A DNA stretch of 64,000 bases, taken from contig CP154954.1 in the NCBI GenBank assembly GCA_039621445.1, positions 45,673,847 to 45,737,846 of the forward strand, read 5' to 3'. This DNA is from Euglena gracilis (taxonomy: Eukaryota). Every line of letters starts with the position of its first letter. Positions within the stretch are counted from its first letter, which is position 1. The translations under genes and the position numbers were made by a program. Under the pieces are notes generated by a model. The model was not told where the DNA came from. It made no database searches and worked only from the letters and a program-made list of their open reading frames with translations. Shown in pieces: positions 19,973 to 58,300 of the stretch.

Positions 19973-20003
<31 letters not shown>

Positions 20004-34524: not shown

Positions 34525-34714
34525 TGGACGTCTCAGAATATTCTTTTGTTTTTATTGAAATCCTCGGATTCCCAATTTTCCTTGATGTCCCAATTGTTCC
34601 CAAAGACGTAACACAATCAATGAAAAGACATAACCAGAGCCAGCAGTCTGCACAGAGGAAAGGTTCGAATTAGGAATACAAAGTTCGGTTCAGGCGGTTA
34701 GTAAATAGTCCGCA
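34525..34714 (-). repeat. 3' LTR
   Basis: Two substitutions versus 43412..43601 by eye (188/190). Confidence 0.95.
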
Positions 34715-35189
34715 CACGCCCCCCATGCCGGAGGACGCGGCGCCACAGGCACAGGACGAAACGGCATCACACCACAAACAAAATGGCTTTACTATGGTTC
34801 AAGCACGAATGAATGGTGTTCAACACGAATTGTCCACAAAAAAGGTGCAGAACGACAAATGTCAACACAAAGGAAGGTAAAAGAGGTTACTTCCGACGTT
34901 CACCGTGGTCCCTTCACTTCGTGGTTGGCTTGCCGTTCAAAGGTAACACAAACCTGGGCGAAACTCCTCACATCAATGGCAGGTTTGTGACTGAAAGCCT
35001 TCAAAGGTTAGACAACAATCCACCCATGGCGAGGCGGGTTGGTGTCTCCTGACCCGAAAAACCATCCAAAAGGCCCCCTGGGGGGCTTGACTTTCCTCCC
35101 GCGTGACTGAAAGCACGATCAAAACATTTGGGGGGAGGCCAGGCTGTCTCTTGAGATGCCAACCCCCATTCACATTCTGAAACGTCGCA

Positions 35190-38690: not shown

Positions 38691-41600
38691 TACATGGCCT
38701 TGGCAGATCTGAACCAAAACTCATTGTCAATGAAACAGGGTTTTGAAACCTCCACTTTTTCCCAAAAATCCTTCAGCTCTGAATTCAAATAATCCTTTTC
38801 TGACACTTGCACTCTGTGGGACAAACTGAAAATCTTCTGCAAAAACAGGTCAAGCTGCACATCCATTTTCTGAAAAGCGTTCCTTGCTTCTTCCTCAAAA
38901 TGAATTTCAAATTTGTTCTCAAAATCAGCACGAGACAAAAAATCACACAATTCATTTTTGCAACCTGCCACATGAACGATATTCAGTTTGAACTGGTGCA
39001 AAAACACATACATCCTTCTCAGTCTTTTGTTGAGGGGGGGTTCACCCTTCAGGAAAGAGGTGGCTGCCTCATTGTCTGTCATCCACACAATTGGCAGATT
39101 TTGCAAAATCCTCGTTTGTGAAGCAATGGTCAGCACACCACTCAAAATTTCCTTTTCCCAGGTAGTGTATTTTTTTCTTGCCTCACTCCATTTCCAGTTG
39201 TAGTGGCCCAAGGGCACCAACCTCATTTCACTGGGGTAGTTGTTTTTCAGGGTTCCATCCACCTTCACACCACTTGTTCGAAAATTCTCAGGAATTTGTG
39301 TTTGTTGGAGGGTTTGCCACTGAAACAATGCTGAACCACCTCCCAAATCCGAACTGTCAGTCACCAAAACAATCTCTCCTGAACTCCTGGGGGTACCCAA
39401 AACATCAAGAGAAGACAATTTCCTTTTCAATGCATTCAAACAACTCTCCTCCTTTTCAGTCCACCTCCATTTCACATTCTTTTTCAGAAGGTCTGTGAGC
39501 GGGGCTGAGTCAAAAGTAAAACCTTTCACGTGTCTGCGGTAGAAATTCATGGCTCCCAAAATTCGCCTCAAATCCCTTTGATTCTGAACTCGAAAACTCA
39601 GAATTGGTTCAATGTTTCTTTTGTTTGCCTGCCACATTCCCCATCCCAACGAGAAACCCAAATAGTCAATGGACTGATTCAGAAAGGAACATTTGCTCAA
39701 TTTGATTCTCACTTGGTTCTTTCTGCAAACTTCAAACCACTTTTCCAAAAGATACAAATGATCCTCCTCAGAGTTTGCACCAACCCCTGTGTCATCAAAA
39801 AAAGAAGCCAGGTGTCCATCCTTCAAAATCTCTCTCACCCTCAAATCCGTTTTGCATTGGGAGGTTAGAATTTCCATCAGCTCCTGAAAAATACCCGGTG
39901 CATTACTTAGGCCAAACATCATTCTTTTGGGACGAAAACACCTCCCAGAAGGAATGCAAAATGCAGACAAATTTGCTGCTCTTTTTGTGATTGGGATTTG
40001 CCAATACCCACTCCTCATGTCCAGGGTACTTTTCCAGCGACATTTGGCCAAACTTTCAATCAAAACCTCCATGCTTGGCAAATAACCTGCATGTGCCTTG
40101 CTTCTGGCATTCAATTTTCCATAATGGATGACCATCCTTCTGGTACTTGACCCTTTTTTGTCCACCAAAAATGTGGGGCTGCACACCTGGGGGATTTCAC
40201 CAACCGGGAATTGCTCAATCAACCCTGACTTTAGCAATTCTTCACACTGAAGGTCAATTTCTTTTTCATCCTCCTGAGGCATGGGCCAACACTTTTGCCT
40301 TAGGGGTTTTCCTTCCCACTCAGGCTTCAGCTCAATGTCCATCAAAACAGGCAGGGGGGAAGACTCAGAAATTGTGGGCAATGGTCCAAAAACATCAGAA
40401 AATTTCACCAAAAGCTCATACAACCTGGGGTGGTCTCTGAATTTCTCAACTTCTTTTTCAAACTCTCCACTCAGATTCTCAGTAAACAATTTGCTGCTTT
40501 TTTCATCAGCCTTTTTCTGGGCCTCCAAAGTCCAAATCTTTTCATGCAAAACTTGGGAAATGCTTTTGAGTTCATCCATCTTGATTGTTGCCTTGGGAGT
40601 TTTCACAGGTTTTGCAAACTGCACATCTTCCACAGGCTGGGCCAGCTGGAAAAACATCACCTCCACATCTTTTCTCACCTCTTGAAAAAGACTCAGCTCA
40701 CTTTCAATGTCCTTGGTCAACTCAGCCAAAAAATTGTTGTTTTCATGCTCATTCATTGGTTCAAACACCACCACATTGTCCAACCATTCTTTCACCTTTT
40801 CATCTGATTCCTTGGGGGGAACATTCTCCAAAGGAAAACTGGGACTTTCAAAAACTTGCTTGTCTGCAGGTGGACTGGCAGGCTGGGGTGCCTGTTGTTG
40901 GGGGGGGACATCAGGAAGAACTGGGAAATCCACTTGAATTCCATCATCCACTGTGGGATACTTCCTGATCTCACCTCTCAGTTCATCCAAACTCCAATTC
41001 CTTGAAACTTTTCTGAGCCAACTGACAATTTTGGGGTCCAAAAGCTCAAAATCCACTTTGAATTGCACAGTGTCCACCACACTCACAAAAGTGTTCACCT
41101 TTTTGCACCTGTCACCCACAAACAAGGGAACCCCACTTGAAATTTTCACCCTGGCCACTGTCACCCTTTCCAGCAGGGGGGACCAGTACTGGTCCACCCA
41201 GTCTGGGTGTACCAGGACCATTTTTGTTTCTTCAATGCACAACTTTGTCACCACTTTGCTTAGTTGGCTGAAGGGGGGGTTTGCCCACAGAAACTTGGAA
41301 GCACCAATGTCACACAACAACCTTTCCCATGAATACCTGTAGGCTGAATTCCCTTTTGTCATGTACAAAGACTGGGTGTGGTTCAGGTGGTTTGCAAAAA
41401 GATCAATGCAAATCTGACCCTCAGAAATCTTCAATTCATCCAAAGCTTTTGTCTTCACTGGCTTCACCAAAGTGTAGCTTTCTGTCTTGAAAAGTCTGAA
41501 AATTATTTTGATGGTGTGGTCCCCATCATGGCTCTGAAGTAAAAACTCCTCACCATCAACGATGATTCTGGGGGGTCTGGTCAGCAACCCACCAAAAAAT

Positions 41601-41710
41601 TCACTTTCAGTAAAGTCAGTCCCCAAAACTGCCTCGAAGGCATTTGTTTCAACAACAACCGCTTTAAGCTTTAGAACTTTTCGTCCCAACTCCAGGCTCA
41701 CCTCACACAC
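38687..41710 (-). CDS. pol: protease C-terminus, N6-adenine MTase-like domain, RT, RNase H
   Basis: VLGTDF; DLFA...WANPPF...LVHPDW...W; SPTFLVDK, TLDMRSGYWQI, MMFGLSNAP and FFDD; TDSS, EKE, TDN and DFLSR. Confidence 0.9.
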   Translation of the reverse strand: MCEVSLELGRKVLKLKAVVVETNAFEAVLGTDFTESEFFGGLLTRPPRIIVDGEEFLLQSHDGDHTIKIIFRLFKTESYTLVKPVKTKALDELKISEGQICIDLFANHLNHTQSLYMTKGNSAYRYSWERLLCDIGASKFLWANPPFSQLSKVVTKLCIEETKMVLVHPDWVDQYWSPLLERVTVARVKISSGVPLFVGDRCKKVNTFVSVVDTVQFKVDFELLDPKIVSWLRKVSRNWSLDELRGEIRKYPTVDDGIQVDFPVLPDVPPQQQAPQPASPPADKQVFESPSFPLENVPPKESDEKVKEWLDNVVVFEPMNEHENNNFLAELTKDIESELSLFQEVRKDVEVMFFQLAQPVEDVQFAKPVKTPKATIKMDELKSISQVLHEKIWTLEAQKKADEKSSKLFTENLSGEFEKEVEKFRDHPRLYELLVKFSDVFGPLPTISESSPLPVLMDIELKPEWEGKPLRQKCWPMPQEDEKEIDLQCEELLKSGLIEQFPVGEIPQVCSPTFLVDKKGSSTRRMVIHYGKLNARSKAHAGYLPSMEVLIESLAKCRWKSTLDMRSGYWQIPITKRAANLSAFCIPSGRCFRPKRMMFGLSNAPGIFQELMEILTSQCKTDLRVREILKDGHLASFFDDTGVGANSEEDHLYLLEKWFEVCRKNQVRIKLSKCSFLNQSIDYLGFSLGWGMWQANKRNIEPILSFRVQNQRDLRRILGAMNFYRRHVKGFTFDSAPLTDLLKKNVKWRWTEKEESCLNALKRKLSSLDVLGTPRSSGEIVLVTDSSDLGGGSALFQWQTLQQTQIPENFRTSGVKVDGTLKNNYPSEMRLVPLGHYNWKWSEARKKYTTWEKEILSGVLTIASQTRILQNLPIVWMTDNEAATSFLKGEPPLNKRLRRMYVFLHQFKLNIVHVAGCKNELCDFLSRADFENKFEIHFEEEARNAFQKMDVQLDLFLQKIFSLSHRVQVSEKDYLNSELKDFWEKVEVSKPCFIDNEFWFRSAKAMY

Positions 41711-41714
41711 TCCT

Positions 41715-42965
41715 CACCGTTGCCGATCTGCAGGGGTACCGCAGCACTACGTTGAATTTTATTCTCTGGAACACATTTCTTAGAAACTGCAGTTATGGTG
41801 GCCCCAGTGTCCAAAATGGCTTGAATTTCCTTTCCATAAACCCTCACTGGCAAAAGATAAGTTTTACACACCATCTGGAGCAATTGTAAAGCATCAGCCT
41901 TTCTCTTTTTGGGGTTCTCACCCTGGGGGGTAACCTGGGTTTGCACTCCCTGGGGTTGAACCGAAGGGGTCCCTTTGCCTGCCCCCTTCTGGGCTGCTGC
42001 CTTCTTAAACTTTTCTTTTGACCAACATCTGTCTTCATAATGCCCTTTTTTTGTGACAAAATCGACAGAAAATTGTGGCTCCAAATCGTGGGGCTGGGGT
42101 GTCATCAACTTTTCTTTCACCCTTGCCTTTGCCTTTTCCTTTGCCTTTTCCTTTTCCACCAGATTTTCCACCTTTTCCAGATTCTGGGACATTTTCACCA
42201 ACTTTTTCAGATTGATCAGGGGGTCATTCAATCAATGGTCTGAGATTTTCTTTTTTCAGCAAATTCCTCTCCAACCAATCTTCAGAACTTTTTTCCAAAA
42301 TCGTTTTTCTCAAATCTGTGAATGTCTCAGAACGATGTTTGTAAAATCTGTCTGCCCTGATGTCTGCATACATTCTGGGGTGTAATTTCCTCAGCAAAAC
42401 CAAAAACTTTTCCTGTTCACTCATGGCCTGGGGGCTCAACCTGGCCATCAAATTGTCCAACTCAATGAAAAGTTTTTTGATGTCTTGGGGTTCGGGGTTC
42501 TGGGAAAGTGCTGGCAATTTGTCAATGGCAGACCTCAAAGTCATGTCATTTTCCAGTGTTGGGAACAAATTTGCAATTTCCAACAGCACTTTTTCAAAAT
42601 CATCATTCTCATCCATCACTTTTTCAACCAGTTTTTTCACCTTGGGGGTGCAACATTCCAACAGCCAATCCTTTTTCTGGACATTTCCAAATGCAATTGC
42701 ACCAGTTAACCTCAACCATCTGCCAAAATCTTTCAAAAACTCAGGCCAATTTGCACCATCAAACTCTGGCAATTTCACAGGGGGTAATCTTGAACTTTGG
42801 GTTGAACTTTGGCTGGGGTTGCTGGAATTTGGTTCCACAATTTGCTTCAGAAAATGTTTCAACCTGGGTGATGGGGTTCACAGGGGTAAACACAGACTGA
42901 CTGTTGCTGGCTGATTTGATTTCCAATTCTTGCAACCTTCTTTCCAAATCTTCAATGGAGGACAT
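41715..42965 (-). pseudogene. gag, zinc knuckle and aspartic protease (frameshifted)
   Basis: PVKLPEFDGANWPEF gag motif; CRFCHKKGHYEDRC across a frameshift near 42045; AILDTGA protease motif. Confidence 0.85.
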
Positions 42966-43395
42966 TTCTGCAGATCACCTTCAAAAAAAACTCAACCACT
43001 GGCTCTGTAAACTGGGAGAAACAGAAACACTGGCCAACCCAAAAAGACAAACAAAAACTGAAGAAACCAGAACAGAAAACCAACCACTGGGTTCAGGACC
43101 AGGTCAGCAAGATGATGAAGAACTTGCCTCCACCAAGATCTTGTTCTGGACAGCAAGGTGAACAACACCACTTACAAACTTCCTCAACCAAATAACCAAT
43201 ACAACAACTGTTGACAAATTCTCCACTGTGAACTTGTTCACCACAACCTCAATGTCAACTTCCTGTTGAAGGTGTTGTTCTGTACCAGCAACTTGGTTAA
43301 CCTTGCCTTCTGGAAGTCCAACTTCTGGATCTTCAACAACCAGTGAAACAATGTTGAATCTCCTCGAAGACGTCTTGGACGATTGGAACAACAAA

Positions 43396-43407
43396 CCTCT
43401 GCGACCA
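43396..43407 (-). promoter_or_regulatory. Primer binding site, probably tRNA-iMet type
   Basis: TGGTCGCAGAGG, 4 nt inside the 5' LTR; one mismatch to the metazoan iMet-type PBS TGGTAGCAGAGG. Confidence 0.6.
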
Positions 43408-43411
43408 ACTT

Positions 43412-43601
43412 TGGACGTCTCAGAATATTCTTTTGTTTTTATTGAAATCCTCGGATTCCCAATTTTCCTTGATATCCCAATTGTTCCCAAAGATGTAACA
43501 CAATCAATGAAAAGACATAACCAGAGCCAGCAGTCTGCACAGAGGAAAGGTTCGAATTAGGAATACAAAGTTCGGTTCAGGCGGTTAGTAAATAGTCCGC
43601 A
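43412..43601 (-). repeat. 5' LTR
   Basis: Direct repeat of 34525..34714. Confidence 0.95.
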
Positions 43602-43606
43602 CAATC

Positions 43607-45248
43607 TCTCGTTGAGTCCTTGCAAGACGTGGTGCCACTCCAATTGTGGTATTTGGATGATGGACACATCCTGGGAACCCTCCCACAATTACATGCAGCA
43701 ATTACAGAAATCCAACGACAGGGGACGCTACTAGGCATACACCTCAACCCAAAAAAATGCCGCCTGTGGGGACCTGCAGCAACAGAAGCCAATCGTGCTG
43801 AAATGCCGCCAAACAGCCCACTTCGTGCAGTCCCAATCGTGAACTACTCCCCCGATTCTGGTATACGTGCCTTGGGAATCCCGGTTTGCCATCCACAAAG
43901 CGGTGACTTTGCGGGGGAAGTGTGGGCTGAACGTGCAACAGGTGTGCAGAAAGCTTGCCGGGCCCTTTTGAACCTGCCGCAAGCCCATATTCAGTTCTGC
44001 CTTTTGCGATCTTGCCTAGATGCATGCAAAGTTAACGACCTCATGCGTGCAACAGAACTGGGGCAGGCAAAAGACGCATGTGCACTGCTGACTAAAGAAA
44101 TCAGGAACACATTGAGCAACATTGTTGGATCCCCAATCGATGACAACCAATGGGCTCAGGCCACCCTGCCCGCGCGTCATGGCGGACTCGGAATTCGGGA
44201 CCCATCGTTGGAACGTCTCCCAGCACGCATGTCCGGCATTGTGACATTTGTCAGCAATGGCAGACGCACCTTGGGCCTGGCAGACCGAGGAGTACCGAAA
44301 GACACTGCGGAGTGCTTGTCCTCTGCCAACTCCATCCTCGAAGGAACGCCCCCAACGGAAACATGGGCCACGGATGTATCACTCCTGAACGAAGCCCAAA
44401 GCCCTCACATTCAACAGAAGTGGTGGGGTGAATGCTTTGCGAAACAACGACAAAAGGCATTATCTTCCAACCTTCACGGCCAAGACGCTGTCCGGTTCGC
44501 AAGCCAACAACGGCCCCACGCAATGGCCTGGGCTTCTGACACACCATCCTCTGGACTGAAAACATTGGTCGCATCTGCAGAATTCAAAGGCTTTCTAAAG
44601 TGGTCACTGGGAGCACCAGTATGTCCACCAACGGGATCTACGTGCCCACGCTGCTCCAAGCCAATGGACAACCTGGGTAATCACCTTGTATGCTGCAGCT
44701 CAAATGGCATCACGCGGCGACACGGTGCGATCCAGGACTTTGTGTTCCAATTGGCACATGATGCCGGGTTTACAGCAAAAAAAGAACAAGGTGGTTCAGA
44801 GAGAACACGCCCGGGCGATGTGCTCATCAGCAGACTTGACGCCAATGGTCCTGGAGCAGTGGACATCACAGTGAGACACACAGCAGCACCGTACAGACCG
44901 TTGCGTGACGCAGCTGAACTAACCGAATGGTATGAACGCCAAGAGAAGGAAAAGCATTCAAAATATGACGCCACCTGTAGGAGGCTGGGATGGACCTGCA
45001 TTCCATTTGTTGTCGACTGCTATGGCGGCCTAGGCCAAGAAGCGCTAACCCTAATGTCAACACTGATGAAGCTTCTCCTCGGTCAACAAGATGCATGGTC
45101 AAAACACAAAACTGAAGCCAACACATGGCAACTTCTATCAATAACTGTTGCGCGAGAGATCGCGCGACAAGTAATCTGGGGACGTTATGCAGGTAACGAC
45201 ACAGATCCAGAAGCAACCAACACCATACACCAGCCGTACTGTCTGTAA
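43607..45248 (+). pseudogene. Copy 1 polyprotein, 3' part (RT YLDD, zinc knuckle, RLE endonuclease)
   Basis: Continues in frame after removing the LTR element and one TSD (ALQSLVESLQDVVPLQLWYLDDG as in copy 2). Confidence 0.9.
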
Positions 45249-45814
45249 AGAAGACCATTGCGATCCCTGGTCCCAGAGTAAATAATTCACCTAAGACCAT
45301 CCACAACTCTTCATCAAGCAAACAACAGTACCCAATCATCCATAACCTGTGCCTCACATTGGCAAGACAAGTGGCCCGCCAGCCGGCATGGGGAACTATG
45401 GCGGTACCTACCTGGAGCGGTGGATCCCACCACCCAAAGCCAATACGAATTGGAGTGAGCAATTTGACCAACCGCTCTCCCACCCCATCCCTCCAAACAA
45501 AAACAAACAAAAACCACAAGCACACACACACCACACACACACACACACACACCAGCCACCACGCCCCCCGCCTCTCACCCCCAACGCACCTCACACAACA
45601 TCCGCCAAGCTACCCCTCGCCCCTCCGTCTTACCTGCTACCAAGGCCGCTCGTCTTTACACTCCCACACCTGTACCTCGGACAGGCCGCTGATTCCGCTT
45701 CTGTATATAGCCCTACCCCTGAACACTCAAATCCAGTAGGCTGTGCCACTGGTCGGTGGACTCGGCTCGCCCCACCACCGGACTGCTGTCGTTTTCAGAC
45801 GTAAAAAAAAGGGT

Positions 45815-47369
45815 TTTTTTGCCCGAGAGGTACAGGTCACGCTGCAAGGTGCGAACGCTTTCTGTGTGAATGCATCTCAATTCTCTATTGCCTCCATTCT
45901 TGAATTCAGCGTCTGAGTCAGTTTTGAAATTTTGTTCTTATTTCAGGTGGAAGGGTTGGGTGCATACCAGATGGACACAGGAATGATCATCCCTGGTAAC
46001 CCGCGCAGGGTTTTGAATTTGATCGAAGATTTGAAGGTTGCTGCAATGGGCCAGCGACACACCTCATCATCGCCAACTGGCGTATTACGAATGTTAATGT
46101 GTGAAAAACTTTGCCTGCAAGTTGCGGTCCTGCGGTTGTAATTCTCTCTTGCAGTGTTAAATGCCTTGCGCCTCTTGCAGTTTCTGTTGCTCTTCTTTTT
46201 TTGTTTTGGCGTGTGTCTCTGGCCAATTTGTCGGCCAGGAAAAAAAATTAAATTCTCGCAATTTCAATTTTTTTTTGCAATCAAATTGCTTAAAAAATCT
46301 GGAGTTGGAAACAAAATTTTTGTTTGCAAGACTTTCCCCTGAAAAGCACAAACTTTTTGCACATAGTCCGCCCAGGATTCACCTTCAGTGATATGAAGAA
46401 GGTTTTTCAGCCCCGGTTTGACTGTTTTTCTGTTTGACTTTTCCCGTGAGGGGAAACGGCGCTCCTCCTGGCACAGTAGAGCAGGGAAAGTGCTTTCCGC
46501 GAAGAAGTGAAAAAAAAGGAAAACCTGCCGACAACGCTGAGCGACCCAGGTGACAAAAAGCGATTGCAGCGTGAGGATTTTTTCGACTGCCGCCGCACGC
46601 AAAATATTACTTGTTCTCTATTTTGTCCAGTCGCATAAAACTTGACGTTTTGTGTATCGTGCCGAGTGGTGCTTTGAGGGTACTTTTTCACCCAAGCGAC
46701 TTCTGTTCGTAAAATCGCCCAGAGGGGAGGCTTGAGAGAGCAAAAAAGCTATTCGGATATTTTTGAAAATTTTGAAGAAAAAAAAATTCCGCAATTTTTC
46801 TTTCACAGCTTCCTCAAAAGGAAAAATAACACTCAGACGAAGAGGTGAGAAGGAATCAAAATGAGGCCACTGTGGCAGGTTGGAAATTCCTTTTTTTTTG
46901 AAAGAAAAACAATTTCCAAATTTTGATCATTTTTGCCAACAACATGAAACAAACTGTTCAAAGAAACAAAAGCAACCAGAACAGTCAAGCAAAGAAATTT
47001 GCAGGCGACAAAAGGCAGGGAAAAAACAGCAGTAAGATTCCCAATCCGCGGACAGTCAGAGGCTGACAGGCAAAGTTTTTCACACATTAACATTCGTAAT
47101 CCGCCAGTTGGCGATGATGAGGTGTGTCGCTGGCCCATTGCAGCAACCTTCAAATCTTCGATCAAATTCAAAACCCTGCGCGGGTTACCAGGGATGATCA
47201 TTCCTGTGTCCATCTGGTATGCACCCAACCCTTCCACCTGAAATAAGAACAAAATTTCAAAACTGACTCAGACGCTGAATTCAAGAATGGAGGCAATAGA
47301 GAATTGAGATGCATTCACACAGAAAGCGTTCGCACCTTGCAGCGTGACCTGTACCTCTCGGGCAAAAAA
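45815..47369. mobile_element. Foldback element with ~300-bp near-perfect inverted arms
   Basis: 45815..46117 is the reverse complement of 47067..47369, and the ORF track shows mirrored peptides. No clear TSD. Confidence 0.8.
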
Positions 47370-47482
47370 CACTTCCCACCAGGCAATTAAGGATTCCCCG
47401 CGGGCGAATTACAACGAAAAACGCAATAGCGTCGGTTAAGGACATGGGGCGAGTACTACCATCACTTTTAGGATTTGCGTTG

Positions 47483-47502
47483 TGAGTGTCTATTTTTTTT
47501 CG
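47483..47502 (+). other. Euglenid spliced-leader exon copy at the 5' end of retroelement copy 2
   Basis: TGAGTGTCTATTTTTTTTCG is a perfect match to the 3' 20 nt of the SL; ATG follows at 47517. Confidence 0.85.
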
Positions 47503-47516
47503 TCTGCATAATCACC

Positions 47517-48305
47517 ATGGCTGCAAAGGGGCCGGATGGCCCTCCAGAAGACCCCAAGACTCAAGACAATATACTCCTTGTCAACCAAGCTGCTACCACA
47601 ACCAACCCTTCAAGTACACCCACTGTTGCAGTGGACACTGGACAGTTGGAGCTGCTGGCCAAGATGTTGTTGCCGCTGTTGGTGCCGGTGCTAACCACTG
47701 CTGTGGCACAACGACTCATTGCTGACCGCCCTGTACATAGTGACAGAGAAAGTCAAGACAGCAGCTCACAGAGAAGGAAGAGGACATGGCAAGAGAGGGA
47801 AGAGCATGAAGAGTACCTACAGAGAAGGTTTGGAAGAGATTACAAGCCCCCATGGCAGAGAGGTCGACCCAGTTATCATATATCTCAACAGAGTTCTCCT
47901 CAGCCCCAGCTCCACCAGCAAGTGAGTCTGGGGCCCCCCTGTACAGCAAGCCCAACAGTGGGCATTCCACAGTCAGGCCCATCAGTGGGCATTCCAATGA
48001 ACAGCCCATTCCAATGCCCACCAGTGGGTAGAAGTCAAGTATGTCCATCTGTCACATCAATCATACAAATGTACATTCCATCACAGACCAACCTTTGGGG
48101 TGAACCCCAGCAATCTCAGCAACCACTGCAATCAAACTGGAGCAGAGAAGATGACCAGAGGAGGAATTGGACCAGAGAAGAAGAGCAGAGAAGGAGAGAG
48201 GTTGAACTCTTCAGAAGCCTCAGAGCCTTTCTCAGCACAGGCCAGAGTACACAAGTCCCCCCCCTCCCAACACCATTACACTACCTGGCCTGCCAGCACC
48301 CTTAA
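47517..48305 (+). CDS. First ORF after the SL in copy 2 (Pro/Gln/Arg-rich, unknown function, possibly gag-like)
   Basis: ATG 14 nt after the SL; 262 codons; no recognised domain. Confidence 0.5.
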   Translation: MAAKGPDGPPEDPKTQDNILLVNQAATTTNPSSTPTVAVDTGQLELLAKMLLPLLVPVLTTAVAQRLIADRPVHSDRESQDSSSQRRKRTWQEREEHEEYLQRRFGRDYKPPWQRGRPSYHISQQSSPQPQLHQQVSLGPPCTASPTVGIPQSGPSVGIPMNSPFQCPPVGRSQVCPSVTSIIQMYIPSQTNLWGEPQQSQQPLQSNWSREDDQRRNWTREEEQRRREVELFRSLRAFLSTGQSTQVPPLPTPLHYLACQHP

Positions 48306-49005
48306 TCCCAGATGTGGTACTGGCATCACCATCAGCCTTCCAATGTGCTTTTCTGCCTGCAGCTTTCCCTTTTGTCTCACAAAGTCCCCCCCAAAGAGGG
48401 GACAATTCAACACAATACCTTCACCCAGTAAAACAAATGGATCAACAATTTCTTCCAAAGGCAACTCCAAATCAAAAGGAGTCAGCAAAACAACCCCCCC
48501 CACCCAAAAGAGGAGGATCATCAACCCCAGCCAAATGCAACTCCAAAAAATCTCAGCACCAGCCCCCCAATATCAGCCCCCCCTGCAAAAGGGGGGGGGC
48601 CAGGCCCACCGTTTCGCATTTTTAAAATTCCAACAAAACCCACCATGTTTGATGGCACACAGTGGGCCAAACTGGGCACAGTGATCCTGCAGGAGGAACC
48701 CAGCCCCTTTCAAAGGCAAGACCCCCCCCAGGCAACAGATTTACCAGCCTCCCCACCCAACACCCCCCTGGAAGGAGTTCCAGTTTGGGAAAAACCAGAG
48801 TTTCGGTCCCCCAGGGAAGAATTTTTTTGGAGAAGGCGCATGAGACAGCAAGCAGGAGGCTTTTTATTTCACGAGATGGTCGCCAGAAAACTGGCCAACA
48901 TTCAGGAAAAGTGGGTCGACATTGGCAGAACAGTGGACATTCGGCAGTCACAAAAAATGGTGCACACAGACATGAAAATCACGTTGCCACTGGCAGCGCC
49001 AAACG

Positions 49006-52000
49006 TTGTGCAATCGCCCCCCCCCCCCACCAAAAAAGAACCTCATCCTGGAACGGATCAGAATCGCCCAAATTCTTCATCAATACCGACCAGAGGAACA
49101 ACGTGAGGAGGGAATGGACATGTCGCACATAGAAAAAGTACGCCGAGCTATTGCACAAAAAATCAAACAAAAAGTTCCTGCAGCAGAAGCCGTCTGCCCC
49201 CCGAGGACAAAGAAGAAGCGGCTGACACCCTCCCGAGAACCAACCCTGCCCATTGCCTGGCGATACTGCCCAAGAATTTGGCAGATGGATGACATGCCCA
49301 GACCGTTACAGTTTGCGTGTGAGGTTGGATTGGCTGATCGTCTTTCCCCGTCTGTATGGACTGCCAGCGATCTTGATGACTCCAATGACTCCCTGTCGGA
49401 CTATTACTCTTGTGCTGGCACAAAAAAATTCCACATGGCAGAAACAGTCGGCAACATACACCCCTGCTCTGCAAGCCCACATGGGCAGAAGAAGCCGGAA
49501 GACGCATATCTGAAGACGGGGCGAGGTGATTCCCTGACAACAATGGGGGATGTGGAAACCAATCCAGGCCCACCGACGGCATTTAATGGACCCTGTGGTG
49601 AAGTGATGGATCTATTGGACCAACTTGTTGCCATGAACATGACTGATTTCTTTCGGATCAAGGCCGAAATACCGTTGCGGCAAGGCCCCCGATGGCTCCT
49701 CCCAATCACTTCTTCCCAAAGCTACATACTGGCTGAAATGCACTTTGTGTGACATTGAAACCATCACTGCCTCGGCAGGTTGGTGCCTGCACCACAGGGA
49801 AACCTGCCCTGTTTTTTCAGCCACAGTATTTCCATCTACTGAGACAGCAAAAGTACACTCCGTAACAAGCCGAGGATACACGGTAGAACAAACCCGGGAA
49901 AAGTTTTCAGAAGGACACCAGCCGACTGGAAGGGGGGACGAATCACCACCCATGGTGACGTCCAAACACAACCAGGACCCATCTACTTCCGCCTGGCCAC
50001 CATGGAAAGACCGACAATCCCTGTCTCCAGGGGACTTCAAGAAAACTTCATTCGGCACAGATTGCTGGCGAGCCTTCAAGAGGTGGATGCAGAACTTCAA
50101 ACTTTCCGAGGCGCCTTCCCTTCCGATGTCCTGGTTGAGGACACTACCGTCCATGAGCTCACCGAATGTTGGGAAGTTTTGAGAGGAGTTCTGTTTGTGC
50201 TCATAGGGCTATGGCCACATCGACCACCACGTCACGACTCCCCATCGAGTGTGCATACCATTATGTGGTTGCTGACTTGTTTATGGTCCGAAGTATGCAA
50301 CATCGGCGAGGCCTTTCAATTCTACCTGCCCCCTATTCACCTAATGACACTACCCAACGTACTCCGGCCGAGAGGCACTTTCCCCAGAGTACCTCCAACA
50401 GAGCCCTCCTCGTCCGACCTCTCCCTATTGAATGTACACACCGTTGATATCCTGGACATCATGGCCTTCTTACGTCCGACAAGTTCAGTAGTCTCAGTTG
50501 ACCGTCACGTCCGGAGGGCACGACGGACAGCACAAAGACGACCAAACTACCAACGAGGTGACCAACACGGTGACATAAGCCCTAACGACGCTGTCATAAC
50601 CGAGAGGCCCAGACACCAAGATGTCACACTTTGTGGTGACGTTCAGCTCGAGCCGGGACCTATTCACCGGATAACCCCACGTGAAGGACCCCTATTCCTG
50701 CGACCTAGCACCAGGCCCCATTGCCGACGACCAACTTGCACTCTGGCCCCAGGGCCTTCTAAGTTGTCAAATGTGGCCCCAGGGCACGCCAACCACGTAC
50801 GGCAACTGATTGACCAGGAAAAAATGCGGTATGGGTACAGTCCCCCCCGTTGTGGCAGGGGCAAAAGCCTTGCCAGTTGTGGCGACATTGAAAGCAACCC
50901 AGGACCCACAGAAACCCGCCCTCCCCAGCAGGAGGACGTTGAAATGGCCTTCGCCGCACAGACCTCTGCTGGGCCGCCGACGGAGCGACCACTCCTTGGA
51001 TCTTGGTTTCCAATGCACTCGACGCCGCTGTTCTCACCTACTCTGTCCCAGGCTATAATGCCGTTTCCCAGTTTGAACGGGGTCCCCGGGGCACCGGCAG
51101 CTGAACAAATCATGGTCATTGACGAACTAGAGTCCCGGGTGCGCTCAGCGATTTCCGAAACTCACGGGCATGCGCCGCAGGGCCAGGGGTTGACTGACAA
51201 TTTTGTGCCGTCCTCACCACAAGGGCAAGAGCAAGAGTGCCAAAATGGTCGAAGGCCGCAGCCCCCCGTGGCTCCAGCACCAGCGCAATCCTCGATGAAC
51301 GCTGCTACGCTGCAAGTCACTCCTTTCTCGCAACCTTGCCCACCAATGCAGCCATCTTGGGAAGAAATTTCCCAAGACACTCGGGGCACGTTGGTCCATA
51401 TCCCACGGGGAGCGTTGCGAAACGTTGGGCTCGCCTTTTGGAGCACCCTCAGTCGCTTTGTGTCCAAGCCAGGATGGGAGACCCTACACGCACTTTGGTG
51501 CTTCCCAAAAGCTGTACTTGCTCCATTGAAGCGGAGCGGGAAAAGCCATTGGGCTGCAGTTGGACGGAAAATTACTGAGAGAGCCAATGCCTACCTCAAC
51601 CGGTCCACAGAAGATTCGTGGGATGAGACTCGCCAAATCCGCGCTGCACAAAACCCAAAGAAGAGAACACGAAGTCAAGGCAAAATCTGCCTCCGGACTT
51701 CCCTCGCCTCGAATTCGATCTCAGTGAAGATGCAACCAGGGAGCGCTTAATTGAAATACGGAAGGCAGTCATGTCTTTCCCGAAGGAGTCCTCACCAGGA
51801 CCGTCTGGACTTCGTCCAGATCATCTTAAGGACATGCTCTCTGATCCTCTCGGGACACAATCTGAACAACTCCTCACAATTTTGGACCAATTCATCCGAA
51901 CATGTTTGACAAACGGAATTCACAACTCAGTGGCATGGATTTTCGCGGGCGCCCGTTTGACTCCTCTTTGAAAACCCTGCAATCCAAGCGAAAACCTTGA

Positions 52001-55000
52001 TGAGCTTGGCAATGCCAACCCCATTCCTGACCCAAAGAAAGATGGCACGCGACCAATTGCAGCTGGGGAATGCCTGCACCGATTGGTGGGCAAATATTTG
52101 ATGAGGCACCCCAAAATCAGGGACCGCCTTAAAGAACTGCAGCCACTACAATGTGGTGTAGGGGTCCAGGGGGCATGTGAACTCATTGCTATGCAGGGAT
52201 GGCCCTCGTTTTCTAACCGATCGTTTTAAAACACGTTTTTTTCGAAAAAAACCCGTTTTTTTTGAAAAAAACGGGTTTTTTTACCTTCGCCGCCCCCCGT
52301 CGTTTTTTTCAAAAAAAAAATGTTTTTTTTTTGTTTTTTTATTTCCTTCGCCCCTCATGGCCGAAGGCGTGAGAAGAATGGCTCTGCCTGAGTTTTATAC
52401 TCTCCGTTACCCGGAAAATTTCATCTGGGGGACCCGAAAGTAAATGCCAGTTTCTCACTTTTTTTTTGCGCTCTTGGACGCACCCCCTGCCGAAGGGCCG
52501 TTTTCATGGACCCCGGGGAGAAAAAAAACCCTGGGACAGCACCCGCGCTGTGGTACAAAACTTTTCCCCCAAGATGGGGCACAAAACTGCCTCAAGATGG
52601 GGCACGAAACTCCCCAAAATGTTGGGGCCAAAGTTGTGCCAGAAAACTGGACCCAAAAAGTTTCCAAAATGTTGCCCCAACCTGTGGCACAAAACTCCCG
52701 CCATGTGGACACAACATGTGGCCCCTAACTGTCACAAAGATGTGGCCCACAGCTGTGCCCAAGATGTGCTAGAAAGCTAGACCCAAAAAGATGTGGCACC
52801 AAAATGTTGCCCACCTGTGGCACCAAATTGCCCCCAATGTGCACCAAGCTGGCCCCAAGATGTGCACCAAACTCTGACCACAAGATGTGCACTAAATTGT
52901 CCAAAATGTGGACAGCAGAATGGTCCCAAAATGCTTCCCCCAGCTGTGGCCAAGATGTGCCCAAAATGTGGCACCAAACTGGGGGTGAATGTTGAATGTG
53001 CTTGGGTGGACAAAAAACTGTTTAAGGAGCTTTTCCCAGGGCAAGGCAAAACACAGCTGAAACAGAAACAGCTGAAACATGGGACCGAATTACTTGAAGC
53101 ACATCACGACGAACTTCTGCAGCAGCGCCTTGTGAAGGTCTTCAAGTTCATTCATTATTCTTTTATCTCACTTGACCTTTAAGCAAATCACTTGGATCTT
53201 GAAACTTGTCAAATTGACGTGTCGCACTTGTTTTTATAACTTGAACCCCACCATGGACCTTCACCTGTCGGCCAAGCTGTATGAAAGAATGCATACCCAT
53301 TGCAACACACGATCCTCCACAGGCATCAGGACATATAAGGATTTAACCAGACACCGCGATTCCTAATCCAAAAAAACCAACGGTGGTTTTTTTTAAACAA
53401 AAAAACACAGTTTTTGGTTTTTTTCGAAAAAAACCAAAAAAACACCATCCCTGTTGCTATGGGACTGCAGCAAGAAGTAAATAACCTGCATATGCAACAG
53501 GACAGCAACTGGGCTTTGTTACAGGTAGATTTCAGCAATGCTTTTAATTGCGTAAAAAGAAAGACAGTCCTTGCTGAAGTGGCTAAACGCTGCCCGGAGG
53601 CGTACGTTTGGTTCGAGAGTTGCTACGCTGAACACAGCCCGCTCTTTTGTGGGTCATCACACCTTCGGAGTGCCTCTGGCGTACAACAAGGGGACCCTTG
53701 TGGCCCAGCCGGATTCGCCTTGGCGTTGCAATCTCTCGTTGAGTCCTTGCAAGACGTGGTGCCACTCCAATTGTGGTATTTGGATGATGGACACATCCTG
53801 GGAACCCTCCCACAATTACATGCAGCAATTACAGAAATTCAACGACAGGGGACGCTACTAGGCATACACCTCAACGCAAAAAAATGCCGCCTGTGGGGCC
53901 CTGCAGCAACAGAAGCCAATCGTGCTGAAATGCCGCAAAACAGCCCACTTCGTGCAGTCCCAATCGTGAACTACTCCCCCGATATACGGGCCCTGGGAAT
54001 CCCGGTATGCTATCCACAAAGCGGAGGCTTTGCGGGGGAAGTGTGGGCTGAACGTGCAACAGGTGTGCAGAAAGCTTGCCGGGCCCTTTTGAACCTGCCG
54101 CAGGCCCATATTCAGTTCTGCCTCTTACGAACCTGTCTAGATGCATGCAAAGTTAATGACCTCATGCGTGCAACAGAACTGGGGCAGGCAAATGACGCAT
54201 GTGCTTTGTTGACCAAAGAAATCAGGAACACAATGAGCAACATTGTTGGATCCCCCATCGATGACAACCAATGGGCTCAGGCCACCCTACATGTGCGTCA
54301 TGGCGGACTCGGAATTCGGGACCCATCACGGGAACGTCTCCCAGCACGGATATCCGGCATTGTGACGTTTGTCAGCAATGGAAGACGCACCCTGGGCCTG
54401 GCAGACCGAGGAGTGCCGAAAGACACTGCGGAGTGCCTGTCCTCTGCCAACTCCATCCTCGAAGGAACTCCCCCAACGCAAACATGGGCCGCGGATGTAT
54501 CACTCTTGAACGAAGCCCAAAGCCCTCATATTCAACAGAAGTGGTGGGGTGAATGCTTTGCGAAACAACGACAAAAGGTATTATCCTGCAACCTTCACGG
54601 TCAAGACGCCGTCCGGTTCGCAAGCCAACAGCGGCCCCACGCAATGGCCTGGGCTTCTGTCACACCATCCTCTGGACTGAAAACATTGGTCGCATCTGCC
54701 GAATTCAAAGGATTTCTAAAGTGGTCACTGGGAGCACCAGTTTGCCCACCAACGGGATCAACGTGCCCACGCTGCACCAAGCCAATGGACAACCTGGGTA
54801 ATCACCTTGTATGCTGCAGCTCAAATGGCTTCACGCGGCGACATGGTGCAATCCAGGACTTCGTGTTCCAACTGGCACATGATGCTGGGTTTACAGCAAA
54901 AAAAGAACAAGGAGGTCCAGAGAGAACACGCCCGGGCGATGTGCTCATCAGCAGACTTGACGCCAATGGTCCTGGAGCAGTGGACATCACAGTGAGACAC

Positions 55001-55368
55001 ACAGCAGCACCGTACAGACCGTTGCGTGACGCAGCTGAACTAACTGAATGGTATGAACGCCAAGAGAAGGAAAAACATTCAAAATATGACGCCACCTGTG
55101 GGAGGATGGGATGGACCTGCATTCCATTTGTTGTTGACTGCTATGGCGGCTTAGGCCAAGAAGCACTGACCTTAATGTCAACACTGATGAAGCTTCTCCT
55201 CGGTCAACAAGATGCATGGTCAAAACGCAAAACTGAAGCCGACACATGGCACTTCTATCAATAACTGTTGCGCGAGAGATCGCGCGACAAGTAATCTGGG
55301 GACGGTATGCAGGCAACGACACAGATCCAGACGTAACCAACACCATACACCAGCCGTATTGTCTGTAA
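49006..55368 (+). pseudogene. Copy 2 polyprotein with four 2A-like motifs, RT and RLE
   Basis: GDVETNPGP (49546), GDVQTQPGP (49954), GDVQLEPGP (50635) and GDIESNPGP (50881); GVQQGDP, WYLDDG and RPGD motifs. Confidence 0.85.
52194..53453. mobile_element. Non-autonomous hAT element inside the RT of copy 2
   Basis: Ac-like TIR CAGGGATGG / CCATCCCTG; 8-bp TSD TTGCTATG at 52186..52193 and 53454..53461. Copy 1 shows the empty site (CTCATTGCCATGGGA). Confidence 0.95.
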
Positions 55369-58300
55369 AGAAGACCACTACGACCCCTAGAGCCAGAACA
55401 AACAATCGTCCTTAAACCATTCACAACTTGTCAAAAAAGTAAGCAACGGTACCCAACCATCAGCAACCTGTGTCCCACATTGGCAGGAGAAGTGGCCGTC
55501 AATTAGCTTGAGGAACAGTGGTGGAGCCAACTGGAGCGGTGGATCCCACCACCCATTGCCCATATGAAACGGAGTAAGCAATTTGACCACAGGGTCAAAG
55601 ACTCCATGACACACCAACCGTACACATAACCAACCACAAGACTAATTAAACCAAAAAACAAGCAAATCACACCTTGCAACGAACGGACCAAGTCTACAAA
55701 CACGTCCAAACCCTTACCGCACTGAAAACAGAGCCTTCCCTGCGCCAACTCCCCTAAACCTAAACTTGTCGCTGCCACAACCTCAACACCCGACAGTCCC
55801 CATGGCCGTTCCATTGAACCTTCCCTGCCGCTGTACACTTTCCACTCACACTCGTTATCTCCCCTCCGTACTGTGCCCCTCACCGCCCTCCTACTTCACC
55901 CTCGACTCTCCCCCCTCCCACCTTTGTGAACTTGGTATATATGTGCATTACTCTCACCCGCACAGGACTTCGGCTCGGAGTGATCCTCCTAGGCCGCTTT
56001 GTCTGAGTTTCCTTTCTTTCTGCGTACTAGGTGTATGGAAAATGAAAGGAAAGGTTTCACAGATTTTATCTTTCTTTCAGAACGTTTTCCACGAACTGCC
56101 CCACCCTAACCGTGGGAAACCACTACATCTTTTTGCCCCCCTACTCGCCCATGTTGTACCCTGTACTGCTTTTTTTTTTCGTGTGCCATTGCAGGAGAAG
56201 AAAACGGTGGTGGGGCGAACCGAGTCCACCGACCAGTGGCACTGCCTACTGGATTATTCAGTCTGAGGATATGTAGAGATGGGCTGGGCCCATGGTCCAT
56301 GGTGGAGTACTGCTTTTCCACTTTCAAAAGCGGCACAAAGCAAGAGCTGGTCTTACGCCACACAGAAATCTGTGCAACTGACAATCTGCAACGTGGACAG
56401 AAGATAAGTGCCAGGGCGAGGATATTGAGGGATATTATGGAGAACAACATTGGACTAATCACCCAAGCGAAAGTGGTGCATTCTTATGCGCACGCCATGG
56501 ACTACATTCCAGCTTGCCTAAGTGGTGAAGATTTGCTTTGAAGGCCTCTGTGTTGCCTTGATTTCATTCCTGCTCTGCACAAAACATCACAAGAAAAAGG
56601 TGAGTCTTGGAATCAAAAGTACCTTAGAAAACGCTTCGAAATGTAAATGATGGTGAAATTAGGTTCAGGGGGCTCAGAAAGCCGGCGGATTGGTCGTTGG
56701 AATTCGGGGTTAATTTTATGCCGGGATCCTCTGGAGAAGCATCGGACCCTTTGCCTAACCATTCTGTGCCTTCCTCAAGGCCAAAAAGGGGCCGAAAATA
56801 AAAACAAATTATTGAGTGGCAGAAGCATTTGGAATTGATAGACATTCCTTCAAAACACCAAACCCCACTGTTTCCGGCTCTCTGGACGACCTGGGGCTCT
56901 GGGGCAAAAAAACACTTCCCACCAGGAAATTGAGGATTCCCCGGGCGAATCGAAAAACACTATAGATTTTGTGAGGCAAATTCCTAATTAGTGTGCCAAT
57001 TCCTAATTTTAGGGCAAATCCTTTTTTTCATGTGTGTATTCCTGATTTTTAGTGACAAATGCCTAATTTTAAGTGTAAAATACTGAAATTTGAGAGGTAA
57101 TCCCAAATTGGGTGTGTCGGTACCTAATTTTGAGTGGCAAACTCCTATTTACAACGGACAGGCACAATTGTTGGACCCGGTCGGACATTTTCGTTGGCCC
57201 TTGCCAGGCAAAAAATGGGAGAATGGAGGAAATTTCTATAGGGCCCCTGGAGACGTGAATAGTTGACCCTCTGACCCATGAAATTTAGGCAAAGCTAGCT
57301 CTCAAAATTTCACAAATGTGGGAGGTGAAGGATCATACAACAACTGCTCCAAAAGCTGTTCCTCAAAGTCTCGCATTGGAATGCCATCAATTCACATGGA
57401 TGGCCACACTTTACATTAGCTTCCAAAAATTTTCTCCGACGGCAACTCTAGGGTACAAGCAACCTCTTCTCAAGTCTTCCAAAGCAAAATTGTTCACTTT
57501 GGGTTGAAAAAAACAGCTTTGCCATCACTGTGCATCATGCAAAGCCAGAGGCAATAACAATGTGACGGGACGCACTGCTTTTCAAAAACATTTGGAGCTC
57601 TGCAATAACCTTCAAAAATCTACAAAGAATGAAAAAAGGTTCCCCTGTGACCTCTGGCTCCCTTGTGACCTCTGTGACCCCCTTGTGACCCCGGCAATCC
57701 AGGGTTTCGTCTCCCAACGCCCACAGGGGTCTTTTTGCAAAATGAACAATGCGCGGGACCCTCAAGCCATCAAATGCAAACATGAAGCCCAAAAAGAGAG
57801 GCGGCAACAAAAATGTGAATTTAGCAACGAAGTTTTCCCAAAGGATGAAGGACAGTTTATGAACTCCTTTTGCTTTGCCTTTTTTCACATTGTGGGCCAT
57901 TGCCTCCCATGTGACCTCCCCTGTGACCCCCTGTGACCCCCCTGTGACCGCGGCCCACCCCCTTTGGGTGGCCATATTGTACAATCAATATGCAGACTCT
58001 TGAAGACATTCCCACCAATTCCATTTGAATCTTAGCATCTGCTGTGAAATTTTAAGTTCCTTGGTTCAGATTCTTACAGACGGGTTTCACTGCAAAATTG
58101 TCTATCAGGGTGTTTTGGAGTTGCCAGTTGCGGAACCAGAAAAAATCATGCTTTCAACCCAAAAAAATGAATGTTGTAGAGATAAAAAATGCACTTTTTC
58201 CAAAAAAAAACATTGCAAAAATTTTTTCCCCCAAACCCTCCATGACGTTTTTTTTGTTTTTTTTTGAAAGAAACATATTTTTTTTAAAAAAAAACATGTT

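Follow-up and report, generated by a model that had tools for sequence, protein, structure and literature searches.

We report that the four 2A-like motifs at positions 49519-50907 of a 64,000-nucleotide stretch of the Euglena gracilis genome (the window, by which we mean the whole stretch of DNA analysed) are probably StopGo/2A sites in the single long open reading frame (ORF) of a high-copy LINE with a restriction-like endonuclease (RLE), where they would separate proteins co-translationally. The window holds two copies of the element, and the array belongs to the second, copy 2, which has the following parts.

47517-49518, + strand: putative N-terminal coding region, with an ATG at 47517, broken into several frames; its 5' boundary near 47430 is uncertain
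49519-49572, + strand: 2A#1, canonical, GRGDSLTTMGDVETNPGP, core GDVETNPGP; aligns with the first 2A of the relative P0002, flanks included
49573-49927, + strand: small Cys/His module (GPCG...YWLKCTLC...CLHHRETC), in frame 0 to 49686 and then in frame +1
49927/49928-49980, + strand: 2A#2, degenerate, WKGGRITTHGDVQTQPGP, with GDVQTQPGP and reading (T)GRGE-ITTHGDVQTQPGP; Q replaces E at p14 and also N at p16
49981-50607, + strand: segment 3, an orphan of about 209 aa
50608-50661, + strand: 2A#3, degenerate, PRHQDVTLCGDVQLEPGP, with GDVQLEPGP; Q replaces E at p14, E replaces N at p16, GRG gone
50662-50853, + strand: spacer segment of 64 aa, with one unit resembling the 34-aa repeat of copy 1
50854-50907, + strand: 2A#4, canonical, GRGKSLASCGDIESNPGP, core GDIESNPGP, immediately upstream of the RT-RLE protein
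50908-52193, + strand: N-terminal part of the RT-RLE protein, matching P0001 and P0002 by tblastn
52194-53453, no strand assigned: foreign 1.26-kb insertion, outside the element proper, which interrupts the RT and has an 8-bp target duplication, TTGCTATG
53454-55264, + strand: RT and C-terminal endonuclease (Pfam RVT_1, E 1.2e-12)

All four motifs noticed in the sequence-only reading of this DNA are present, and all lie in + frame 0. The core octamer D(V/I)ExNPGP occurs in 2A#1 (DVETNPGP), in 2A#4 (DIESNPGP) and in the single site of copy 1, and is lost from 2A#2 (DVQTQPGP) and 2A#3 (DVQLEPGP). In the roughly 10 residues upstream, a region that contributes to 2A activity, the pattern GRG..L....G is found in 2A#1 and 2A#4; 2A#2 has GRG and HG, and 2A#3 has LCG only. 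We take the peptides to resemble the T2A type. The strict pattern [DG][VI]ExNPGP has three matches in the six-frame translation of the window, as compared to 0.0009 expected, and none in 300 shuffles, while a looser pattern (Q at p14; Q, E or H at p16) has five, as compared to 0.009 expected. The ORF at 49843-51750 spans 2A#2 to 2A#4, with coding sequence on both sides. A 1-nt frameshift within 2A#2 had also been claimed, and it is real, because TGRGDE is legible in frame +1 at 49925-49942; copy 2 lacks one nucleotide after 49937, which splits the motif.

Contigs from sequencing runs show how far copy 2 is typical of its family, for which 1519 contigs of run X1 fall on a 2.8-kb stretch. At 49686 copy 2 has 1 nt more than most copies do (the base is missing at a depth of 34533/40189 in X1), and some other copies have an extra A behind 49937 (12602/40111 in X1; 7.32/7.32 in X15, a run that is RNA only by guess). 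These two indels restore the reading frame across 2A#1 and 2A#2, and the frameshifts inside the array are, judged by the contigs, particular to copy 2 or to a minority of copies. The intact relative P0049, the only protein retrieved by a near-length search with the 635-aa ORF, aligns to copy 2 in one frame from about 48870 onward and carries the stretch from 2A#1 to 2A#2 in a single frame (TGRGERITTHGDVQTQPGP); its second site is degenerate too, and its first reads NPGL. The differences listed for other copies are synonymous in 2A#1 (49548 GGG>GGT, 49572 CCA>CCG), as are the substitutions listed in 2A#4, and none of those listed falls in 2A#3. Loose contig ends occur at 50731 and, in three runs, at 51677; some other copies share the copy 1-type 5' part with one 2A (the loose ends at 50731), and the full array is therefore dispensable, in that not every subfamily needs it for amplification. 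A leaf-litter metatranscriptome, run X20, contributes 14 contigs to the stretch, in 17 of 30 bins; transcription does not follow from this, and the empty bins carry no meaning.

The segments between the sites differ in how readily they can be recognised. The Cys/His module matches P0001 (245-286) and P0002 (188-233) by tblastn. Pfam has no match in the region 47517-49518 or in segment 3; the latter (taken as 49981-50661) aligns with P0006 and P0007 at 2A-like stretches only, and an Atlas search for look-alikes gave one match to it (0.78, low recognition), too poor to be of use. A possible fifth, decayed 2A relic, QRGDQHGDISPNDAV, lies within segment 3 at 50551-50595. Downstream of the array, copy 2 has lost about 173 nt near 51680 that copy 1 retains, and a stop codon interrupts its frame at 51969-51971; beyond the insertion it retains YLDD at 53777-53788 in the RT and, in the endonuclease, CPRC...H...CC from 54764, RPGD at 54929-54940 and VDITV at 54980-54994.

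By homology, and as had been suggested from the sequence, the element is an RLE-type non-LTR retrotransposon, its RT being accompanied by a C-terminal CCHC/PD-(D/E)xK endonuclease. A family profile searched against the PDB, where the class references are solved R2 structures, has R2Tg as its best match (5.8e-35), with R2 proteins matched in both RT and RLE; profile positions 942-1112 match residues 1186-1365 of R2Tg, the RLE domain (i-E 9.9e-6), and the near-invariant alignment columns include C440, H450, C454, H463, E484 and D510. P0001 alone had no match among PDB sequences. The APE domain (endonuclease/exonuclease/phosphatase family) is absent from Pfam scans of the window ORFs and of 24 relatives, so that the APE and RLE pairing of Dualen/RandI is not seen here. 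Nor does the window show insertion in spliced-leader RNA genes, a trait of the CRE clade (CRE1/2, SLACS, CZAR), of which the sequence-only reading made the element a putative relative: Rfam, which is blind to an undescribed spliced-leader gene, found no family at threshold in the whole window and neither a spliced-leader gene nor any other RNA gene at either insertion, and the dinoflagellate spliced-leader motif had no match with up to three mismatches.

Copy 1 provides an internal comparison, and the single canonical 2A previously noticed in it is confirmed.

31858-32667, + strand: tandem repeat of 102 nt in six copies, in frame with the 2A downstream, replacing the copy 2 array
32732-32785, + strand: single canonical 2A, GRGESLAICGDIESNPGP
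32786-34525, + strand: first part of RT-RLE, 88-94% identical to copy 2
43602-45470, + strand: second part of RT-RLE and 3' region

Homology between the copies starts at 50770 of copy 2 and stops near 45470 of copy 1 (55590 in copy 2); upstream of 50770 the two copies show no homology. Their flanks differ from each other, and neither copy is flanked by long direct repeats, the only repeat being one of 84 bp with 81% identity. The Ka/Ks ratio for RT-RLE is 0.08-0.13, by which measure this protein evolved under purifying selection, as compared to 0.85 over the 44 codons preceding 2A#4. The 2A#4 core itself, CGDIESNPGP, differs from that of copy 1 by three synonymous and no non-synonymous changes, and the 20 codons upstream of the site by 10 non-synonymous changes. 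Both copies are broken and inactive, and any function is therefore one of the family rather than of this locus. Only one Dam-like match occurs in the window, at 41404-41117 on the minus strand, and it is part of a DAM-LTR element nested in copy 1; the segments of copy 2 contain no Dam module, so that the presence of such a module inside the element, which marks DAM-carrying retrotransposons, does not apply to it.

The clade to which the element belongs carries such sites widely. They occur, one to four each, in 7 of 44 long RT homologues, also in 20 of 80 further proteins and, three to four each, in P0125-P0129, counts to be read with the enrichment for 2A that comes from retrieving some of these relatives with 2A-containing queries. 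Over 56 sites in 29 proteins, positions -17 to 0 read GRGxxLLSCGDVExNPGP. Conservation of NPGP is here by construction, since NPGP was the selection criterion; that of the upstream GRGxxLLSCG is independent of it (GRG about 0.7, L-12 0.85, G-8 0.96), as compared to top-residue frequencies of 0.11-0.25 in the flanks. Conservation relative to flanking residues, across copies, had been proposed as a test of the array; across these relatives the upstream pattern shows such conservation. In a quick RT tree with SH-aLRT support, a single clade of 24 rows (SH-aLRT 95) takes in all 17 that bear a 2A, and the 32 rows beyond it lack one; N-termini are short in the seven clade rows with no visible 2A (365-607 aa ahead of the RT match).

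Full-length relatives have up to four T2A-like sites, which divide an SLBP-like RNA-binding domain (SLBP_RNA_bind, 6.9e-22 in P0007 and 2e-13 in P0002), a small Cys/His module, a Dam-like methyltransferase and RT-RLE. The Cys/His module, of about 105 aa, is present in many relatives, always with a 2A at its end. The Dam-like module is found in P0001, P0002, P0007, P0058, P0074, P0096 and P0125-P0129; the Dam match in P0058 (33.9 bits) is above the curated cut-off, with NPPF/NPPY motifs present. Some relatives also have an N-terminal C2H2 finger after the last 2A, which the window family lacks, and in some, neighbouring 2A sites are only 23-39 aa apart with no module in between. Metagenome contigs, scanned once with the 635-aa ORF and once with P0049, yielded no confirmed relative, and an RT-RLE alignment query found none in a viral contig collection. 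The motifs make up a genuine 2A array in one long ORF upstream of RT-RLE, and the polyprotein with several 2A sites imagined in the sequence-only reading finds support in the relatives, where such sites divide recognisable modules.

The motifs, their common frame, the type of element, conservation across the clade and the modular layout are observed; that the sites skip, how efficiently they do so and what the products do, we infer. In active ancestors of the family, wherever an ...NPG|P site works, the ribosome would skip its Gly-Pro bond, freeing the upstream product while translation carried on downstream, so that one mRNA would give an N-terminal protein, a small Cys/His protein and an RT-endonuclease as separate chains, in amounts probably dropping toward the 3' end. 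By their motifs, 2A#1 and 2A#4 are most likely active and 2A#2 (QPGP) and 2A#3 (EPGP) most likely weak or dead relics; the stretch from 2A#1 to 2A#4 would therefore probably be made mostly as one chain. It had been suggested that the Q/E variants tune or abolish the skip. Tuning finds no support; loss or strong weakening is the likelier effect, because p16 is N in 59 of 62 GRG-anchored sites of relatives (H in two and Q in one, the Q being that of the window's own family) and because changing this N to A abolishes 2A activity in published assays (excerpts of PMC12846837 and PMC12338488).

Three other explanations can be weighed against co-translational separation. An unlikely one, though the best placed of the three, is that the sites serve mainly as translational attenuators that keep RT-RLE scarce, the separate upstream proteins being incidental. 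Most retrotransposon-associated 2A-like peptides lowered protein abundance according to excerpts of a 2026 preprint (PMC13405545), down-regulation of products downstream of a 2A has been proposed (Odon 2013, PMC3708506, in part), and the closely spaced sites of some relatives, with no module between them, fit such a role. However, attenuation does not readily explain why the relatives' sites bracket conserved SLBP-like, Cys/His and Dam-like modules, and the two roles are in any case compatible. We consider it quite improbable that the array is a fossil in the window family, four functionless leftovers in an element that spread as a single fused protein. The degeneracy of 2A#2 and 2A#3, repeated at the second site of P0049 along with its NPGL at the first, would suit a fossil, as would the existence of a subfamily with another 5' part; yet the cores of 2A#1 and 2A#4 show only synonymous changes, both among the variants listed and between copies, while their flanks vary freely, and RT-RLE bears the mark of purifying selection. 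That the 3.3 kb upstream (47430-50770) has nothing to do with the element, being for instance a captured virus-like or host sequence that lies beside a 5'-truncated LINE, is the least credible, for although the two copies share nothing upstream of 50770 and the N-terminal region and segment 3 match no known family, one frame runs from 2A#2 through 2A#4 into the RT protein, P0001 and P0002 have their parts in the same order (2A, Cys/His module, 2A ... 2A, RT), to which 2A#1 and the Cys/His module of copy 2 are directly homologous, summed contig depth is similar over 48900-51700, and no relative was found in viral contigs.

Beyond separation of proteins in the window family, we lean modestly towards a wider reading, in which this RLE-LINE clade, hitherto undescribed, acts like a small polyprotein virus: three to four T2A-like sites in one ORF would free SLBP-like, Cys/His, Dam-like and RT-RLE products, with modules shuffled, duplicated or replaced, and the window family would be a successful member in which two sites have decayed. 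Since the family is extremely abundant, a multi-2A strategy is compatible with massive amplification. If true, a clade that uses several StopGo sites for accessory proteins would represent a second, independent ORF1/ORF2 solution, and LINEs would be tied to adenine-methyltransferase capture. The clade would also offer natural T2A-like variants by the dozen, Q, E and H substitutions among them, for working out the sequence rules of StopGo.

Published 2A sequences in LINEs, as far as the excerpts extend, are confined to APE-type elements (L1Tc, Ingi, Rex1, L2, CR1 and Crack; Heras 2006; Odon 2013, PMC3708506), apart from single cases in ORF2p of algae and dinoflagellates. Like the window element, the APE-type LINEs carry D(V/I)ExNPGP in frame within the N-terminal part of a long ORF, before the enzymatic domains, and a discrete upstream product with a down-regulated downstream one has been proposed for them (PMC3708506, in part). 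They differ in having one site, located for all but one element in the N-terminal region of ORF2p according to the same excerpts, whereas the window clade has a C-terminal restriction-like endonuclease, up to four sites and, in the relatives, modules between them. The R2, CRE, NeSL, R4 and Hero elements likewise have an RT followed by a CCHC and PD-(D/E)xK endonuclease; RLE clades are described as having a single ORF for one multifunctional protein (PMC3708506, in part), no 2A is described for these types in the portions of the literature covered, and, in contrast to them, the window element shows no rRNA or spliced-leader target. Picornaviruses with several 2A-NPGP sites encode multi-2A polyproteins (excerpts of PMC11512398), and in multi-2A RNA viruses, as here, several NPGP sites in one ORF yield several products; the window element is instead a genomic retrotransposon with RT-RLE, and no relative of it was found in the viral contig collection. 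Dam modules have been assigned to DIRS and LTR elements (DIRS, DAM-LTR) and not to non-LTR/RLE elements in the available text of 10.64898/2026.05.21.726589; a Dam-like module with NPPF/NPPY is shared with these by relatives of the window element, but not by the window family. The nearest parallels among protists and algae are the ORF2p of Dualen/RandI (Haematococcus) and of Symbiodinium necroappetens, in which a 2A-like sequence accompanies deubiquitinase or repeat domains (excerpts of PMC13405545) and, as here, lies upstream of a non-LTR RT along with extra N-terminal domains; Dualen/RandI also has an APE domain (PMC3708506, in part), whereas in the window clade no APE was found, the sites are several and the modules are others. 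Set against the published APE-type elements and the single algal and dinoflagellate cases, multiple 2A sites in an RLE-type LINE would appear to be new.

Copy 2, a non-LTR retrotransposon copy, contains an array of four 2A (StopGo)-like motifs upstream of its reverse transcriptase (RT), and all four share one + frame in translation of the window; the observation is solid. The sequence-only reading had claimed these motifs, another in copy 1 (a second, nested-into copy) and a 1-nt frameshift across 2A#2; all were found where it had placed them, the frameshift as TGRGDE one frame off and a base missing after 49937.

49519-49572, + strand: 2A#1, GRGDSLTTMGDVETNPGP
49927-49980, + strand: 2A#2, WKGGRITTHGDVQTQPGP, with TGRGDE in the neighbouring frame at 49925-49942
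50608-50661, + strand: 2A#3, PRHQDVTLCGDVQLEPGP
50854-50907, + strand: 2A#4, GRGKSLASCGDIESNPGP
32732-32785: single 2A of copy 1, GRGESLAICGDIESNPGP
50551-50595: possible fifth 2A relic, decayed and shortened, within segment 3 (copy 2, between 2A#2 and 2A#3), QRGDQHGDISPNDAV

In six-frame translation of the whole window, the strict pattern [DG][VI]ExNPGP has 3 matches against 0.0009 expected, and none in 300 shuffles; a looser pattern that also admits the Q/E variants has 5 against 0.009 expected.

The ORF 3′ of 2A#4 contains RVT_1 with YLDD (Pfam) and, in its C-terminal stretch, CPRC...H...CC, RRH, RPGD and VDITV. A family profile (window protein plus 20 relatives), compared with the proteins of solved structures, matches R2 proteins best (9dou_A, R2Tg, 5.8e-35), including the R2Tg restriction-like endonuclease (RLE) region (i-E 9.9e-6); LINE-1 ORF2p is a far weaker match (about 4e-14). 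Because of these R2/RLE matches, and because the APE family is absent from all Pfam scans of window ORFs and relatives, the element is, as judged by homology, an RLE-type LINE. No spliced-leader or other RNA gene was found at either insertion site.

Both copies are damaged, and several other repeats lie around them.

~47430 to ~55590: copy 2
52194-53453: 1.26-kb insertion in copy 2 RT, 8-bp target duplication TTGCTATG
32627-34525 and 43602-45470: copy 1
31858-32667: 102-nt (34-aa) tandem repeat of copy 1, 6 units by the repeat tool
34526-43601, minus strand: 9-kb LTR-type retroelement splitting copy 1, target duplication ~6 bp (CAATCT)
41701-42231, minus strand: its protease ORF
38690-41713, minus strand: its 1008-aa ORF, with a Dam-like stretch at aa 98-163 (WANPPFS), then RVT_1 and RNase H

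From 50770 (copy 2) onward the two copies share 88-94% identity; they diverge 5′ of that point, where copy 2 has the array and copy 1 the 102-nt repeat, which is open in all three + frames and in frame with the single 2A and RT of copy 1. One lone unit similar to the 34-aa repeat precedes 2A#4 in copy 2. Copy 2 is dead: it has a surplus base at 49686, lacks one after 49937, is shorter than copy 1 by a deletion of ~173 nt near 51680, carries a stop codon in frame at 51969-51971 and is interrupted by the 1.26-kb insertion. This insertion has internal repeats of its own (~130 bp), and an inverted match to its first 160 bp (91% identity) lies at 30405-30562 on the minus strand. Copy 1 is interrupted by the 9-kb nested retroelement, which looks like the 'DAM-LTR' class of a 2026 preprint (10.64898/2026.05.21.726589). 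Between the LINE copies lies a 303-bp inverted repeat (45815-46117 / 47067-47369, 99.67% identity) with the same short ORF in both arms, which may be a foldback or long-TIR element. An ~80-bp repeat (47346-47429) adjoins the 5′ side of copy 2. A second occurrence (81% identity) lies at 56888-56965, 1.3 kb past the point where 3′ homology stops, and a third, reversed, lies upstream of copy 1 at 31530-31593 on the minus strand (97% identity); the repeat may be a preferred target or a piece of another repeat. At ~18800-20800, a periodic array of ~200-nt spacing, proline-rich in + frames (...LCANLVGLRPPPGG...PPPGPPP...), seems to be a tandem repeat with no relation to the LINE.

To view other genomic copies, contigs from four public runs were aligned onto 48900-51700; run X1 alone placed 1519 contigs there, and the family is therefore very abundant. 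The base at 49686 is absent in most copies (depth 34533/40189 in X1, 423.6/433.8 in X4, 4.73/4.73 in X20), and part of the copies have an A after 49937 (12602/40111 in X1, 686/1908 in X4, 7.32/7.32 in X15). With both changes the frame is open from 2A#1 via the Cys/His segment into 2A#2. Independently, the 444-aa JGI protein P0049 runs in one frame across 2A#1, the Cys/His segment and 2A#2 (...GDVETNPGL-LTAFNGPCG...TGRGERITTHGDVQTQPGP-IYFRL...). Among the differences listed from the four runs, those inside 2A#1 and 2A#4 (49548, 49572, 50904) are synonymous, and none falls inside 2A#2 or 2A#3. Ka/Ks between the two window copies is 0.08-0.13 for RT-RLE, 0.41 for the region 3′ of 2A#4 and 0.85 for the 44 codons 5′ of it. 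The comparison of motif with flank that the sequence-only reading had named as a possible refutation came out in favour of the motif at 2A#4: its core, CGDIESNPGP, has 3 synonymous and 0 non-synonymous changes, versus 10 non-synonymous changes in the 20 codons upstream.

Related proteins share the trait. Among 44 long RT-RLE homologues, 7 have 2A sites: four each in P0006 and P0007, three each in P0001 and P0002 (both 52% identical to the window protein), two in P0022 and one each in P0003 and P0021. The 635-aa ORF, searched against 1.84 billion representatives, gave 81 matches, and 2A-like sites occur in 20 of the 80 new proteins, several of which have 3-4. With the P0002 N-terminus (770 aa) as query, P0125-P0129 were added; each of these has RT, an NPPF/NPPY motif and 3-4 sites. 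Across 56 sites of 29 proteins, chosen by NPGP and not by GRG, LL, C or G, the consensus from -17 to 0 is GRGxxLLSCGDVExNPGP, with unconserved flanks. A quick maximum-likelihood tree was built from 56 RT-RLE rows, some of the added ones coming from 2A-containing queries, which enriches for the trait. It groups all 17 rows with 2A in a single clade of 24 (SH-aLRT 95), and no 2A occurs among the 32 rows outside; P0010, P0022, P0043 and P0044, partial or split matches, are omitted. The seven clade rows in which no 2A was seen have short N-termini, with only 365-607 residues ahead of the RT match, and one, P0130, is a short member of a 90% cluster shared with three-site proteins. Outside the clade, precomputed annotation assigns P0026 and P0029 to ubiquitin-hydrolase families (PF00443, PF13423), which recalls the deubiquitinase-LINE fusions mentioned in a 2026 preprint (PMC13405545).

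Between their sites, the relatives carry recurring modules: an SLBP-type RNA-binding domain (P0007 6.9e-22, P0002 2e-13), a Dam-like module containing NPPF/NPPY (33.9 bits in P0058, which exceeds the cut-off; slightly under it in others) and a ~105-aa module, GPSG...W..C..C...H...C, always with a 2A at its end. Module order varies, duplications occur, and some 2A sites are just 23-39 aa apart. The window family has the Cys/His module between 2A#1 and 2A#2, homologous to P0001 and P0002; no SLBP or Dam module was detected in it, and segment 3 is an orphan. The possible relic in segment 3 resembles P0006 522-539 (GRGDAPLSHGDVAPNPGP) and is followed, after 4 codons (12 nt), by the 2A#3 stretch; close tandem sites are seen in relatives too.

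StopGo is the best-supported reading of the array, and comparison with relatives supports it well. As PMC3708506 and PMC12846837 describe the mechanism, the peptidyl-tRNA bond is hydrolysed, the Gly-Pro bond is never formed and translation restarts with Pro. Skipping would occur at every working ...NPG|P, the downstream chain beginning with Pro, and one mRNA would yield several chains in amounts that likely fall. If so, an RLE-type LINE would gain the equivalent of accessory ORFs. The motifs, their common frame, the selection, the clade distribution and the modules are observed; activity, stoichiometry and what the modules do are inferred. 2A#2 and 2A#3 are most likely weak or dead, because in both, two core positions that are normally E and N are changed, p14 to Q and p16 to Q or E. 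Of 62 GRG-anchored sites in relatives, 59 have N at p16, 2 have H and 1 has Q (P0049, of the window element's own family); at p14, 54 have E and 2 have Q. The published assays consulted report that p16 N to A abolishes activity (PMC12846837, PMC12338488), and that N to H lowers it and E to Q by itself does not ablate it (PMC3708506); nothing was found there on a change of N to either Q or E. The family is at very high copy number despite these variant sites.

Library searches turned up no account of an RLE-type LINE with a multi-2A array, and supplements of the nearest papers may list clade members. Of these papers, Odon 2013 (PMC3708506) reports 2A in no elements but APE-type ones and treats the RLE clades as single-ORF; a 2026 preprint (PMC13405545) has 2A-like peptides in ORF2p, among them those of Haematococcus Dualen/RandI and of a Symbiodinium; a 2025 survey counts at most 3 2A instances in eukaryotic genes; and another 2026 preprint describes DAM in DIRS and LTR elements (10.64898/2026.05.21.726589). 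Set beside these, 2A in LINEs is already known, and the multi-2A array in an RLE-type LINE appears to be new.
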